DNA of 43,069 nt from Candidatus Iainarchaeum sp. Its GTDB lineage: Archaea; Iainarchaeota; Iainarchaeia; Iainarchaeales; GCA-2688035. Below are positions 18,554 to 28,035 of the stretch, piece after piece. Positions within the stretch are counted from its first letter, which is position 1, and the number at the start of each line of letters is the position of its first letter. Position numbers and translations under genes: made by a program. The DNA is taken from contig JAGVNX010000040.1 in NCBI GenBank assembly GCA_020053055.1, forward strand, positions 1 to 43,069. Reading direction: 5' to 3'. Below the pieces are notes generated by a model. That model was not told the DNA's origin. It did not search any database and saw only the letters and a list, made by a program, of their open reading frames with translations.

Positions 18554-18615
18554 CAAACTGCAAAAACGCGGTTTCCTGCAGGGGTTCCGGAGCGGTCAAA
18601 CGGACGGGACTTAAG

Positions 18616-18747
18616 AGGCCTTTTCTTGAACCTTGTAAAACCAAAAGGTTTTACGAAGCCTCGCAAAGCTTTGCTTTGCAAGGAAGAAAAACCCTGGGAA
18701 AAAAGAGTTCCCAAAATGCAATTATTGTGGACAAAAGGCCGGGAGCA
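18616..18747 (+). other. tRNA-Leu intron (near-canonical BHB)
   Basis: Inner helix GGCCUUUU 18617-18624 / AAAAGGCC 18733-18740. Central helix CUUA/GGAG has 3 pairs plus an A-G mismatch. Bulges are AG|A and CA|A. One extra unpaired G lies at 18741. Confidence 0.8.
18617..18705 (+). repeat. Repeat-family copy inside the tRNA-Leu intron
   Basis: About 85% identical by eye to 27123-27210. The 33-nt block gcctcgcaaagctttgctttgcaaggaagaaaa (18658-18690) is identical to 27163-27195. Confidence 0.8.
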
Positions 18748-18885
18748 ATCCCGTGGCTTAGTGCCTTCGGGGGTTCGAATCCTCCCCTCTGCACTGCCCT
18801 TTCTTTTCTTTGGAAAAGAAAAGTGCAAGCATCCTGAACTGGATGACAAACAAAAAAAATGGTTTGAAAATTTGAAGTGATTTGA

Positions 18886-26078: not shown

Positions 26079-26397
26079 TTATAACATTGGCTGGACGCAA
26101 ACAAGCCTGACAATGATAGTGGGGCATTTGCAATAAGGATAATGGGCGCGTTTATACTGCCTGCAATTGCCAGATTTTTTCTTTAAAAATGCAGGGGAAA
26201 ACAGGCGTTTCATTTGCTACCAGCAGATGCGACAGAGCCAAAATTCGTCAGCTTTTTAAATATTCCCAACTCTAATTAATCTATATAATAAACAATCCTA
26301 AGTTATACATAATTAAATTGACATAGCTTGTTTTTCACCTATGAAAAATGAAGCGCTGCCACCAAACGGCAGTTACGCGCTTATGGAGGTGCTTGTA

Positions 26398-26760
26398 ATG
26401 GCGTTAGCAAAATTTTCAGTTCCAGAAAAAATTGCCCAACAACAGTTTTCTTTGCTTGAAAAAGCGAAGAAAACAGGCAAAGTAAGAATCGGAATAAATG
26501 AAGTTACAAAAGCAGTGGAAAGAGGAGATGCAAAACTGGTTCTTATTGCAGAAGATGTCAATCCTGCAGAAGTAGCAATGCACATTCCCCTAATCTGCGA
26601 TGAAAAAAAAATTCCCTACAGCTTTGTAAAAACAAAAAAAGAGCTCGGCGAAAAAGCAGGAATTGCAGTCGGAACAGCAGCAATTGCTATTGTCGACGAG
26701 GGAGACTCAAAAAAAGAATTAGGCGAAATTGCCAAGGCAATTTCAGAATTGAGGAAATAA
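26398..26760 (+). CDS. rpl7ae: 50S ribosomal protein L7Ae (eL8 family, K-turn binding)
   Basis: GINEVTKAVERGDAKLVLIAEDVNPAEV..HIPLICDEKKIPYSFV is the L7Ae signature. ATG 26398 is preferred because GGAGGTG lies 6 nt upstream. Confidence 0.92.
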   Translation: MALAKFSVPEKIAQQQFSLLEKAKKTGKVRIGINEVTKAVERGDAKLVLIAEDVNPAEVAMHIPLICDEKKIPYSFVKTKKELGEKAGIAVGTAAIAIVDEGDSKKELGEIAKAISELRK

Positions 26761-26769
26761 AAAAAAAGC

Positions 26770-26828
26770 CTTTTGAAGCGCTCAAAACTTTTGAAGCACT
26801 CGGCTTTTGCCTCGCTTTCAAAAGTTTT
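26770..26828 (+). terminator. Hairpin plus T tract after L7Ae
   Basis: cttttgaagcg 26770-26780 pairs with cgctttcaaaag 26813-26824 (one bulge), followed by tttt. Confidence 0.3.
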
Positions 26829-26883
26829 ATCAAAAACAATTCGCTTCCAAAAGCCTTGGAAAAATAAAAAAAAGGTGGATTGA

Positions 26884-27090
26884 ATGGAACAGGGAACACC
26901 AGCTGAAATCGTTGAAATAATGAAGAGAACAGGAGTTCACGGAGAAATTATCCAGATAATGTGCAGAATCCTTGACGGGCCAGAAAAAGGGCGGGTCAAA
27001 AGGCGAAACATCAAAGGCAATGTGCAAAAAGGAGATGTTGTGGTTCTTTTGAGCACTGAAAGAGAAGCCAAGGAAATCAAAGCCAGGTAA
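26884..27090 (+). CDS. rps28e: 30S ribosomal protein eS28
   Basis: 68 aa; PAEIVEIMKRTGVHGEIIQIMCRILDGPEKGRVKRRNIKGNVQKGDVV is S28e-like. Confidence 0.92.
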   Translation: MEQGTPAEIVEIMKRTGVHGEIIQIMCRILDGPEKGRVKRRNIKGNVQKGDVVVLLSTEREAKEIKAR

Positions 27091-27104
27091 AAAAAGGCGC
27101 TGAA

Positions 27105-27121
27105 AATGGTCAATTGCAGTT
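27105..27121 (+). repeat. Direct repeat 1: copy of the L24e start (aATGGTCAATTGCAGTT)
   Basis: Identical at 16 of 17 positions to 27378-27394, and exactly 273 nt upstream of it. Confidence 0.85.
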
Positions 27122-27377
27122 CAGCCTTTTCTTGGACCATGCAAAACCAAAAAGGTTGCGTGGCCTCGCAAAGCTTTGCTTTGCAAGGAAGAAAAGCCCT
27201 GGGAAAAGAACAATTTGCTAGCGCAAATTGGTTGCTTTGCAAAAGCCTTTTCTTGGAAAGAACATTACAAAAGCTTCGCTTTTATGATGCCTCAAAAAAC
27301 ATTTGGCTTTTTAAGGAAGCTTGGGAAAAAACAATTTGCTAACACAAATTGATTTGGCTCCCAAAAGAAGGTGGAAC
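27122..27377 (+). repeat. 256-nt non-coding insertion (MITE-like or intron-derived) between S28e and L24e
   Basis: Bounded by imperfect inverted termini ccttttcttgg 27125-27135 / ccaaaagaagg 27361-27371. Positions 27123-27210 are homologous to the tRNA-Leu intron. An internal ~33-nt direct repeat occurs at 27199-27231 and 27320-27352. Track ORF 27106-27342 is judged non-coding. Confidence 0.7.
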
Positions 27378-27394
27378 AATGGTTAATTGCAGTT
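27378..27394 (+). repeat. Direct repeat 2: the functional L24e start (aATGGTTAATTGCAGTT)
   Basis: See 27105-27121. Confidence 0.85.
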
Positions 27395-27549
27395 TTTGCG
27401 GAACAGAATTGAAGCCCGGAACAGGCATGATGTTTGTGAAAAAAGAAGGCACAGCGCTTTTCTTTTGCTCAAGGAAATGCAGAATGAACCTGACAAAGCT
27501 AAAGAGAAACCCAGCAAACAAAAAATGGGCAAGCAGGAAAAAAATCTGA
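27379..27549 (+). CDS. rpl24e: 50S ribosomal protein eL24
   Basis: MVNCSFCGTELKPGTGMMFVKKEGTALFFCSRKCRMNLTKLKRNPANKKWA is the L24e signature. GGTGG lies 5 nt upstream of ATG 27379. Confidence 0.92.
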   Translation: MVNCSFCGTELKPGTGMMFVKKEGTALFFCSRKCRMNLTKLKRNPANKKWASRKKI

Positions 27550-27564
27550 GAAAGGTGATTTTAA

Positions 27565-28035
27565 TTGGAAAGAAGCCTAGTAATCATAAAGCCTGATGCG
27601 GTAAACAGGGATCTGATTGGAAGAATAATTGCCAGGCTTGAAGAAAAAGGCCTGAAAATAGTGGCAATGAAAATGGAAAAATTGCACCCCTACAAATTGA
27701 AAGACCATTATGCCCACTTGAAAGACAAGCCTTTCTATGAAGAAATCATAAAATACATGTCAAGCATTCCAAGCATTCTTCTTGTGATTGAAGGCAAACA
27801 AGCTGTTGAAGTTGTGAGAAAAATGATTGGCCCTACACAGGGAAGGGAAGCGCCTTCGGGAACAATCAGGGGGGATTTCAGCGTAAGCAACCAGTCAAAC
27901 CTCGTGCACGCATCAGACAGCACAGAGACAGCGCAAAAAGAAATTGAAAGATTTTTCAAGGCAGAAGAATTGCACGAATACCAGAAAATGAATTTTGACT
28001 GGATTTATTCAAAGGATGAAAAATCGCTTAAATAA
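27565..28035 (+). CDS. ndk: Nucleoside diphosphate kinase
   Basis: ERSLVIIKPDAV...GTIRGDFS...NLVHASDS (active-site His). TTG start. Confidence 0.92.
   Translation: MERSLVIIKPDAVNRDLIGRIIARLEEKGLKIVAMKMEKLHPYKLKDHYAHLKDKPFYEEIIKYMSSIPSILLVIEGKQAVEVVRKMIGPTQGREAPSGTIRGDFSVSNQSNLVHASDSTETAQKEIERFFKAEELHEYQKMNFDWIYSKDEKSLK

Follow-up and report, generated by a model that had tools for sequence, protein, structure and literature searches.

Why does the start of the ribosomal protein L24e gene occur twice in this genome, and how has the gene stayed intact? In compact DPANN genomes nearly any insertion should strike a gene, and an insertion that duplicates the start it strikes would offer selfish DNA a route into the 5' ends of essential genes without lethality. 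We consider it probable that a mobile hairpin repeat inserted into L24e and that the gene survived by way of a duplicated ribosome-binding site and start. The window is the whole 43,069-nt stretch that was analyzed; the genome holding it is called G000, and G001, G002 and G003 are its congeners.

The two copies of a 17-mer, AATGGTCAATTGCAGTT upstream and AATGGTTAATTGCAGTT downstream, are identical at 16 of 17 positions and are spaced 273 nt apart (Table 1). The window holds no third match with up to two mismatches, the chance expectation is 0.02, and two matches occurred in 0 of 100 shuffles; the repeat pointed out in the preliminary description is confirmed, as a pair unique in the window. 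Local alignment extends the similarity of the two starts to 33 nt, including the Shine-Dalgarno (SD) region (z 8.2). Upstream, this region reads AAAAAAGGCGCTGA, while the functional copy has GGTGG; G003 has AGAAGGTGGAATA at this position in both copies. The upstream copy of G000 also lacks 9 nt (TTTGCGGAA) that both repeat-flanked congeners, G002 and G003, retain. S28e and the downstream L24e start are alike in their GGTGG SD and its spacing, and L24e is matched in 192 of the 196 genomes of the order. Judged from these sequences, the downstream copy is probably the real start, and the only one used, with the upstream copy a relic.

What, then, of the 78-codon open reading frame (ORF) that begins MVNCS at the upstream copy? 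No Pfam family was found for it. The three frames of the insert hold one, one and three stops, and since the insert is stop-poor throughout, the open frame reflects composition rather than coding, in agreement with the earlier view that this ORF is spurious. Mononucleotide shuffles had looked suggestive of coding (10 of 2000 for G000 and 35 of 2000 for L070), a reading that was rejected: the same frame is shut after 3-4 codons in many other copies. Insertions of this kind are an annotation hazard, creating spurious upstream ORFs and false starts.

Table 1. Coordinates of features in the window
Feature	Position	Strand	Basis and remarks
Further large repeat unit, 5' end of a 132-nt tRNA intron	18617..18705	+	88% over 85 nt; aragorn -i
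Ribosomal protein S28e gene	26884..27090	+	Stop TAA 27088-27090; ORF list; Pfam Ribosomal_S28e, E 4e-23
Probable relic SD region of the ancestral L24e start	27091..27104	+	Within the 33-nt local alignment of the copies
Upstream (probable relic) copy of the L24e start	27105..27121	+	16/17 against 27378-27394; 9 nt shorter than in congeners
Spurious ORF, 78 codons, from the relic ATG through the repeat units	27106..27342	+	ORF list
Repeat unit 1, 'large' type, young	27123..27243	+	Genome copies and alignment
Unit 1 core module: 3' strand of hairpin 1, linker CTGGGAAAAGAAC, hairpin 2 CAATTTGC-TAGC-GCAAATTG	27189..27233	+	Core matches, hairpin statistics
Repeat unit 2, older, decayed	27244..27364	+	121-nt periodicity; four-genome alignment
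Unit 2 core module: linker and hairpin 2, one arm mismatch	27320..27354	+	Repeat and inverted-repeat search
Purine-rich segment CCAAAAGAAGGTGGAAC	27361..27377	+	Sequence; fold; able to pair with 27125-27135
Functional SD, GGTGG	27370-27374	+	Inside the purine-rich segment; 5 nt upstream of the L24e start copy
Downstream repeat copy, probable true L24e start	27378..27394	+	N-terminus MVNCSFCG common to relatives
Ribosomal protein L24e gene, 56 aa	27379..27549	+	Pfam Ribosomal_L24e, E 8e-17

Empty and filled sites

The S28e-L24e junction was compared at 25 loci, from G000 and 24 relatives, of which 21 lie outside the genus. Each of these 21, which represent other genera of the family and order, has an element-free spacer of 4-158 nt and one start. 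Within the genus, G003 carries a 72-nt element flanked by perfect 39-nt repeats (SD, ATG and 26 nt), and G002 a minimal element between perfect 28-nt repeats, an arrangement found identically in three metagenome contigs. G001 retains the 3' half of the element only; its upstream copy is gone and its L24e is intact. The congener elements occupy the same insertion nucleotide as that of G000. Since the congener repeats are cleaner and longer, the G000 17-mer is best read as what is left, after decay, of an originally longer target duplication, and since the SD lies within the duplicated segment in this genus, it was copied rather than delivered by the insert.

These comparisons bear on several earlier proposals. 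A flanking target duplication that left L24e intact, and the expectation of an empty site in relatives, are both upheld by the short, element-free spacers outside the genus, the former also by the cleaner repeats of the congeners. Setting the extent of the duplication at 17 nt proved too short, given 39 of 39 nt in G003 and 33 alignable nt in G000. Identification of the downstream copy as the L24e start with its GGTGG stands, with the Pfam match to Ribosomal_L24e behind it, but the proposal that the insert supplied this SD fails on its position inside the duplicated segment.

Is L24e the only gene so affected? A TraB-like gene of G000 has an element within a 23/25 repeat of SD, ATG and 16 nt; the repeat is shorter in G003, and G001 and G002 have a single-copy empty site. 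Of the 39 copies in G000 that could be tested, 6 are abutted by long repeats (25-38 nt, z above 7; the count leaves out one tandem tRNA pair), and G031 has flanking repeats of 31 nt and at least 38 nt. Lengths across loci range over 13-53 nt, commonly about 25-28. Flanking repeats are missing from 33 of the 39 copies in G000, about 30 of 32 in the congeners, and 22-23 of 25 in G018 and G031, so that duplication either is not obligatory or has been outlived by the element. Other copies with flanking duplications, which the preliminary description had proposed to look for, are thus a minority. When the whole genome was scanned for start duplications with 24 nt from the ATG and at most three mismatches, settings strict enough to miss the known cases as well, only tandem paralogues came back, with three upstream against three in the control. 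At L024, an upstream match with z 5.8 is T/A-rich low-complexity sequence and was left out of the counts.

Start duplication at L24e recurs in Nanoarchaeia. In a clade comprising L064, L070 and L071 (equal to L086), a duplicate of the first nine L24e codons comes after the S28e stop codon TAA, and next are a CT-rich hairpin, tailed by GGAAAAGAA, and the real start; the nearest relatives of the clade are without this arrangement. Here, the repeat begins at the ATG and a new SD (GGAG) lies in the purine-rich tail of the element. The upstream copies retain M-x-N-C-x-F-C-G-E, with mostly synonymous differences. One Nanoarchaeia genome contains 95 such hairpins, against four in the control, and the starts of two more of its genes are duplicated, one for S15 (18/19) and one for a membrane protein (26/26). 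By sequence comparison, the start-regenerating insertion in L24e appears to have arisen independently in this second phylum. In both phyla the hairpin begins at +27/+28 of the L24e ORF, a coincidence that counts against the insertion history proposed below.

The hairpin repeat family

The inserted DNA belongs to a repeat family with a common plan: hairpin 1 (GCCTTTTCTT..AAGAAAAGCC), an invariant linker (GGGAAAAGAA) and a hairpin 2 whose stem covaries. In G000 the 23-nt core has 45 matches (at most four mismatches), and the congeners have 27, 13 and 13 (at most three mismatches; reversed control 0). Of the 196 genomes of the order, 38 contain the hairpin-plus-linker pattern, against one match in total in the control, and six show bursts of 10-24 copies. 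Among 32 copies, the closing pair of hairpin 1 is A-U in 24, G-C in 8 and broken in none; in 31 of them hairpin 2 is perfectly paired over 7 bp or more, with 25 distinct stem sequences, and pairing of such quality arose in 0.2% of trials with shuffled sequences. The idea that hairpin 2 is taken from the target was ruled out because its commonest stem, AATTTGC, recurs at many loci. Elements lie in both orientations relative to adjacent genes; they vary at the 3' end and have a weak terminal inverted repeat (CCTTTT / AAAAGG).

Of the long tRNA introns that ARAGORN reports in G000 (24 of at least 40 nt), 18 have this module at their 5' end, always in the sense orientation and with its first bases 0-7 nt from the 5' splice site. 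Read by eye, these introns allow the 5' GCCUUUU of the module to pair with an AAAAGGC-like stretch near the 3' end. In the window, ARAGORN detects no tRNA by default and one when introns are allowed. The tRNA-intron module that the preliminary description had recognized in the insert accordingly belongs to this family, which ties together tRNA introns, intergenic repeats and gene leaders and bears on the gain of tRNA introns in archaea.

Two separate repeat pairs in the insert are each spaced 121 nt, and from this periodicity it follows that the insert is not the single 256-nt unit first described; it is two tandem or nested units of about 121 nt, differing in age. Unit 1 has two extra hairpins nested within the loop of hairpin 1 and seven near-full-length copies elsewhere in G000 at 80-97% identity (97% over 118 nt on contig C10, 92% on C43, 90% on C35, and four more). 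In the four-genome alignment, unit 2 corresponds at its ends, by orthology, to the lone minimal element that G002 and G003 carry.

The structural features noticed earlier were largely borne out. An internal repeat given as about 33 nt measures 35 nt, at 83% identity (27199-27233 / 27320-27354). The terminator-like hairpin after S28e forms by pairing of 27089-27098 with 27124-27133, and between the inverted termini (27125-35 / 27361-71), 10 of 11 positions are complementary once a G.U pair is allowed. A long helix between the RNA ends was likewise recovered: the minimum-free-energy fold (-94 kcal/mol, z -2.39; 2 of 100 shuffles as stable) pairs the inverted termini, the outer CAAUUG/UAAUUG, and GUUC/GAAC. 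Rfam gave no match in the window at gathering thresholds and six weak ones in E-value mode, all far below threshold (the best at 28 bits against 55). Readings of the module as a K-turn, H/ACA or C/D-box element, compared by eye with consensus features, did not fit.

Origin of the duplicated start

How would an insertion leave L24e functional? The proposed history begins before the genus diversified, when one minimal element of about 60-70 nt (hairpin 1, linker, hairpin 2) would have entered L24e 26 nt past the ATG, in an event that copied about 39 nt of target: the SD, the ATG and the first 26 nt, that is, eight codons and part of the ninth. Because the duplication included the SD and the start, a complete ribosome-binding site and start would have been rebuilt downstream of the element, from where the essential L24e would keep working. 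The upstream copy would have been left as a relic, decaying in G000 to an SD that is now GGCGC, one mismatch and the loss of 9 nt, while the old element would have decayed into unit 2, alongside which lies the younger 'large' unit 1. The duplication was probably produced by the insertion event itself, and the enrichment at gene starts would reflect the survival, in compact genomes, of start-regenerating insertions only. One observation argues against a passive relic: the repeat copies of G002 have four derived substitutions in common, two of them synonymous, despite their differing SD parts, and such concerted substitutions require gene conversion, re-insertion or selection. Also counting against the proposed history are the conserved residues of the Nanoarchaeia upstream copies, the many copies that have no flanking repeats, the wide range of repeat lengths, and the failure to identify a mobilizing enzyme in G000.

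Could the upstream copy instead be in use? Ribosomes leaving S28e might re-initiate on a maintained upstream ORF, melt the hairpins and stop at or near the real start, coupling L24e to S28e. Such a leader would account for the retention of the upstream ATG at all six duplicated L24e loci, the overlap of the upstream stop with codons 2-3 of L24e at four of them (G003, L064, L070 and L071), and within-clade length differences in multiples of three (6 nt between G003 and G002; 3 and 105 nt among L064, L071 and L070); the upstream copies also follow coding sequence, and the Nanoarchaeia copy keeps the ancestral TAA-ATG junction. We nevertheless think it unlikely, as the upstream ORF ends 38 nt short of the real ATG in G000 and 18 nt short in G002, G001 has no upstream copy at all, and the G000 relic combines a damaged SD with the 9-nt deletion. 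The frame is open by composition, the upstream ORFs at the Nanoarchaeia S15 and membrane-protein genes run to just 4 and 11 codons, and L24e codons would be superfluous in an ORF that serves for coupling. Some of the same facts weigh on programmed translational bypass, of which T4 gene 60 and the mitochondrial 'byp' elements are examples. Translation begun at the upstream ATG would break off at the GGA that immediately precedes hairpin 1 and resume at the matching GGA downstream; these codons are identical in G003, G002 and L071 (GGA and GGG in L064 and L070), the first lies 2-3 nt ahead of a stable hairpin, and an SD-like stretch precedes the second. Bypass is barely credible here, with the upstream GGA lost in G000, no stop following the putative take-off codon, G001 doing without the upstream copy, and a downstream copy whose own SD and ATG make it unnecessary.

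Removal of the element from the RNA deserves thought given that its module opens so many tRNA introns, in sense only and near the 5' splice site. A bulge-helix-bulge motif consists of two 3-nt bulges with a 4-bp helix between them, and the GCCUUUU / AAAAGGC-like pairing of the tRNA introns, read by eye, resembles its inner helix. At L24e, where the element ends pair in the predicted RNA fold and the putative cut sites lie exactly one repeat apart, the tRNA-splicing endonuclease could cleave where hairpin 1 begins on its 5' side and at the matching point of the downstream copy, after which ligation would leave one start, or the message would merely be severed from S28e. Attempts to draw the motif by eye on the G000, G002 and G003 sequences gave none that restores the ORF: to serve as the central helix, a 4-mer of the repeat must be self-complementary (TTAA, AATT or TGCA), and with any of these no flanking helices can be formed. 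In the G000 helix, internal loops of 2x2 and 2x6 stand in place of bulges, elements lie either way round with respect to neighbouring genes, and part of the upstream copy is missing in G000, all of which makes splicing or cleavage here very improbable. Finally, the long spacer might be ancestral, or the repeat an assembly artefact, for these genomes are metagenome-assembled and a multi-copy element can mislead assemblers. The arrangement is present in four bins of the genus and three metagenome contigs, with repeats that differ and are partly imperfect, and an unrelated clade shows it again in three metagenome contigs and one genome record, two of these four being near-identical. With short, element-free spacers at each of the 21 loci compared from other genera, and a filled/empty assembly bubble not expected to yield a direct repeat of unique flank, the absence of any insertion is hardly tenable.

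By what process, then, would the insertion have occurred? We know of no ordinary transposase that makes variable duplications of 13-53 nt. Site-specific (att-type) recombination is ruled out by repeats that differ at every locus, and an initial tandem duplication with the element later landing precisely on its junction was rejected, as it would take two coincident steps at 10 or more loci. A search of G000 (87% complete) for mobilizing enzymes found no Cas1 and no reverse transcriptase (RVT_1). It has one DDE gene, of the IS4/IS5 type (PF01609, 318 aa), on another contig and with unrelated inverted ends (TGTAGAAATCCTT), and one IS200-type Y1 gene (PF01797). The GC-rich hairpins flanking the latter, which we take to be typical of IS200 ends, are unrelated to the family, and the contig of this gene holds no match to the 23-nt core.

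A bolder proposal, possible in our view though doubtful, is that the hairpin family is a mobile, tRNA-intron-borne DPANN element spreading unlike known transposition, with 13-53 nt (about 26) of target copied to its far side and kept alike by gene conversion across the hairpin. Speculatively, a hairpin-ended 5' flap might escape trimming during Okazaki-fragment maturation and be ligated, the repeat length then being the flap length; alternatively, a hypothetical integrase would make widely spaced nicks. Since the copied segment can hold a ribosome-binding site and the first codons, such an element could settle at the 5' ends of essential genes and leave them working, and L24e would have been colonized twice, in two phyla, at the same codon. 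Long, variable target repeats that are homogenized between copies would point to an integration or replication-repair process for which there is no current model.

Relation to known systems

Where does this family belong? Like the MITEs (miniature inverted-repeat transposable elements) of bacteria and archaea, its members are short, non-coding, multi-copy and structured, spread patchily and in bursts among related genomes, have a target duplication and empty sites (at L24e and the TraB-like gene), and form nested or tandem insertions. MITE duplications are fixed at 2-10 bp, whereas those described here measure 13-53 nt and accompany about one in six copies, and the family has a weak terminal inverted repeat and a variable 3' end. 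No autonomous partner with matching ends was found on examining the DDE and Y1 genes of G000.

REP, BIME and REPIN sequences, which RAYT (Y1) transposases mobilize, share with the family their extragenic palindromic hairpins, in tens per genome and often in tandem clusters, and the single Y1-transposase gene of G000 adds to the likeness with REP/REPIN-RAYT systems. Unlike in those systems, the Y1 gene is not flanked by family repeats, and the family also occupies tRNA introns and the 5' ends of ORFs. REPINs are not known to make a target duplication.

Insertion of IS1634 and IS1549 creates long direct repeats of variable length (PMC2266710), as seen at the insertion sites of the family. Those elements are 1.5-2 kb long with their own DDE transposase, in contrast to the 60-125 nt of the family, which has no ORF of a protein family; the one DDE gene of G000 (318 aa) shows no link to the element. 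IS1634-type elements share the want of a model for long variable repeats.

In Thermoproteales, transposing tRNA introns reportedly place one sequence family in the introns of many tRNA genes, and one family likewise occupies many tRNA introns here (18 of the 24 long ones). The present family differs in being also intergenic, in both orientations, and in lying at protein-gene starts with long target repeats, and no splicing motif can be drawn at the L24e site. Integrative elements at tRNA 3' ends (att) resemble it in having a direct repeat on either side of the insert that restores the interrupted gene; their att repeat is element-borne and constant, whereas that of the family is locus-specific and matches the local target. 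We class the family as MITE/REP-like, with long, variable target duplications.

Duplication of the L24e start in the genus

The feature at the start of L24e is real and well bounded. It is an insertion of a DPANN hairpin repeat that regenerated the start of the gene and has since decayed, and it exemplifies a process that recurs. The insertion lies in a conserved archaeal gene cluster (see the table) on contig C31 (the window) of genome bin G000 (1.12 Mb, 79 contigs, 38.5% G+C, completeness 87%). The preliminary description paired a 17-mer at 27105-27121 with one at 27378-27394, and the pair holds, with one mismatch, 273-nt spacing, no other sites and a chance expectation of 0.02. As described there, the downstream copy opens L24e behind a GGTGG SD and the upstream copy begins a spurious ORF. 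The GGTGG lies five bases 5' of the L24e start, and the spurious ORF has 78 codons and no family match in Pfam. Also recovered were the repeat inside the insert, its small hairpins and the ability of its ends to pair. The SD and spacing of S28e are identical to those of the downstream L24e start. Is this, as proposed, an insertion with a flanking duplication? Duplication of the target stands, but the insert comprises two tandem units, since two internal repeat families share a 121-nt spacing, and the 17 nt are what remains of a longer repeat.

Both genes, S28e and L24e, were found at 30 loci, in G000 and in 29 relatives, and 25 of the spacers between them were read. The empty site that the preliminary description suggested seeking is present at the 21 loci outside the genus, which have spacers of 4-158 nt, a single start and no element. 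All three congeners carry the element at the same nucleotide, directly 3' of a stretch ending in TGCGGAAC, nt +26 of the ORF. Congener G003 has a 72-nt minimal element between perfect 39-nt repeats that span the SD (AGAAGGTGG) and ATG through +26. In G002 the element is 65 nt long and the perfect repeats flanking it 28 nt; farther upstream lies an SD segment that is similar but diverged. Three metagenome contigs show an identical arrangement. The two G002 copies have four derived substitutions in common, two of them synonymous, and differ in their SD parts. G001 retains only the element's 3' half, with the upstream copy absent and L24e intact. In a four-way alignment, the G000 upstream copy is short of the 9 nt TTTGCGGAA, unit 2 matches the congeners' single element at its ends, and unit 1 is an addition. 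Local alignment still detects 33 nt of similarity between the G000 copies, SD region included. Given this and the congeners' longer repeats, the 17-mer is a vestige of a duplicated stretch that once measured about 39 nt.

Coordinates of features in the window (no prefix), on other G000 contigs (C17, C4) and in a Nanoarchaeia genome (G196)
Feature	Location	Context	Detail
L7Ae	26341-26760	conserved archaeal cluster	Pfam-confirmed
S28e	26884-27090	conserved archaeal cluster	Pfam-confirmed
Unit 1	27123-27243	tandem repeat member in insert	121-nt spacing
Unit 2	27244-27364	tandem repeat member in insert	121-nt spacing
L24e	27379-27549	conserved archaeal cluster	Pfam-confirmed
Nucleoside diphosphate kinase	27565-28035	conserved archaeal cluster	Pfam-confirmed
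IS4/IS5-type element	C17:16077-17052		318-aa DDE transposase, 13-nt inverted ends
IS200-type Y1 transposase gene	C4:3294-3860	between GC-rich hairpins	
Ribosomal protein S15 gene	L175 (G196, contig C10)	start duplicated around hairpin	18/19 nt
Membrane-protein gene	L175 (G196, contig C10)	start duplicated around hairpin	26/26 nt

Architecture of the hairpin repeat and its place in tRNA introns

Unit 1 has seven other near-full-length copies in G000 (97, 92, 90, 89, 88, 88 and 80% identity), two of them housed in tRNA introns, including one in the window (18618-18702). A shorter core runs from the 3' strand of hairpin 1 through the linker YTGGGAAAAGAAC to hairpin 2 and gives 45 matches in G000 with at most four mismatches. 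The minimal element is about 60 nt long; a large type adds two hairpins nested within the loop of hairpin 1. In a set of 32 minimal copies drawn from four genomes, hairpin 1 closes with A-U in 24 and with G-C in eight, and its closing pair is broken in none. In 31 of the 32, hairpin 2 has a perfect stem of 7 bp or more, a criterion that shuffled sequences attain in 0.2% of trials, and 25 different stem sequences are represented. By this pair switching and these stem statistics, both hairpins are real structures. No Rfam family match to the element was found.

Several arrangements depart from the single module. About ten G000 copies run on into a conserved GTGGTTCGCTTCGCTCACA tail, and three minimal modules lie head to tail at about 50-nt spacing at a contig end (C30:24547-24691). 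On metagenome contig L070, 5' of L24e, hairpin 1 of the element is interrupted by a further insertion, 105 nt of a different hairpin-rich sequence. Such nesting inside hairpin 1 recurs, as in the large type of G000. The window holds a further core module at its extreme start (3-25), which suggests that the repeat broke the assembly there. The L7Ae-S28e spacer (26761-26883) contains the related motifs GCCTTTTGAAGC and AAAAGCCTTGGAAAAA and a perfect 12-nt inverted repeat (26784-26795/26817-26828); the spacer resembles a further decayed member, or a relative, of the family.

With introns allowed, ARAGORN called 44 tRNA genes in G000, 24 with introns of at least 40 nt and up to 228 nt. Eighteen of these 24 introns open with hairpin 1, always in sense and 0-7 nt from the called 5' splice site. 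Read by eye, the intron 3' ends carry an AAAAGGC-like stretch able to pair with the element's first bases, a pairing that would occupy the place of the splicing motif's inner helix. The window tRNA (18578-18794), missed by default ARAGORN, is called Val(tac) with introns allowed; by eye its anticodon loop is CTTAAGA, which would make it Leu(UAA). A second, distinct hairpin family (GCTTTTCGAAG...TTCGAAAAC) is common to two 62-nt introns of G000, in tRNA-Pro(GGG) on C9 and tRNA-Glu(CTC) on C67. Modules of the main family also start directly 3' of tRNA-Phe and tRNA-Val genes (C53:16632-16654 and C33:6166-6188).

Recurrence within the order and in Nanoarchaeia

The suggested search for further copies with flanking duplications was productive. 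We required a repeat to abut the element's 5' edge and to recur downstream; of 45 core matches in G000, 39 were testable and six positive at z above 7. Two of the six are at L24e and a TraB-like gene; the other four are intergenic, their repeats measuring 25-38 nt. A seventh, at a tandem tRNA-Arg gene pair, was left out of the count. At the TraB-like gene, the repeat (23/25) comprises SD, ATG and 16 nt, and its upstream copy overlaps the preceding gene's stop codon; this site is single-copy and empty in G001 and G002 and filled in G003. Flanking repeats accompany 1-3 of 32 copies in the congeners and 2-3 of 25 in two genomes from other genera that show bursts of the element, where the repeats measure 31 and at least 38 nt. 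The hairpin-plus-linker pattern occurs in 38 of the order's 196 genomes, six with 10-24 copies and the rest with 1-6, against one match in total for the reversed control; such patchy, bursty spread fits a mobile element. Outside introns both orientations occur, with the element on the downstream gene's strand 23 times and opposed 13 times by crude ORF calls.

Two arrays deserve description. At C78:15600-16050 (L110, G000), perfect 22-nt direct repeats alternate with elements (repeat-element-repeat-element-repeat), and around them lies a longer repeat that is older and has diverged. The two elements share an identical hairpin 1 but not hairpin 2 or the tails. The arrangement looks as if one target position had been hit by insertion more than once. 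At L176 (contig C4 of G031, an element-rich genome of another genus), at least three tandem 69-nt units lie between 31-nt direct repeats in a partly N-masked stretch.

We surveyed 75 L24e loci from relatives and metagenomes, and species-representative genomes contributed another 19 of 21. Only two groups have a duplicated start, the genus and a Nanoarchaeia clade whose L24e is 45-51% identical to that of G000. In the Nanoarchaeia clade a copy of L24e codons 1-9 directly abuts the S28e stop codon. Next come a CT-rich hairpin, its tail of the GGAAAAGAA type, then an SD (GGAG) and the real start. The clade's nearest relatives show a plain TAAAATG junction. Sequence comparison indicates that the duplication arose independently in another phylum. 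The Nanoarchaeia genome has 95 TTTTCTT..AAGAAAA hairpins versus 4 in the control (3 versus 2 in an insertion-free relative), and its modules have the same hairpin-plus-linker layout as in the genus. Among 17 of its hairpins examined, two more lie between duplicated gene starts (see the table). The element is in sense in all five start cases, and in both phyla the hairpin starts at ORF position +27/+28. The upstream copies of the Nanoarchaeia clade still encode the L24e peptide pattern, and most of their differences are synonymous; this conservation and the concerted change in G002 call for gene conversion, re-insertion or selection.

Alternative readings, mechanism and precedent

Could the duplicated start serve expression instead? 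An upstream ORF that couples translation to L24e is suggested by four of six loci, where its stop codon overlaps the real start, and by differences in length that are divisible by three. However, G000 and G002 do not fit, G001 has no such ORF, stop codons are scarce in all frames of the insert, and the upstream ORFs at the S15 and membrane-protein genes have just 4 and 11 codons. Splicing of the element with one repeat is unlikely: by inspection, no suitable bulge-helix-bulge could be drawn in G000, G002 or G003, and the G000 leader fold shows 2x2 and 2x6 internal loops in place of the required bulges. Ribosomal bypass is unnecessary, and impossible in G000 because the would-be take-off codon is lost. 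The number of independent records, in which the repeats differ and are in part imperfect, rules out an assembly artefact.

How would a start-regenerating insertion make its repeats? They range from 13 to 53 nt, commonly 25-28, and most element copies have none; since they differ per locus, their source is the target, not the element. Across four families searched, the 87% complete G000 yielded one DDE and one Y1 transposase gene (see the table), the ends of both unrelated to the element, and neither Cas1 nor reverse transcriptase was detected. As far as our full-text literature search reaches, it found no description of the hairpin repeat family or of start-regenerating insertion, and both are apparently not in print. 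The sole printed precedent it found for long variable repeats is IS1634/IS1549, for which no model is said to exist (PMC2266710).
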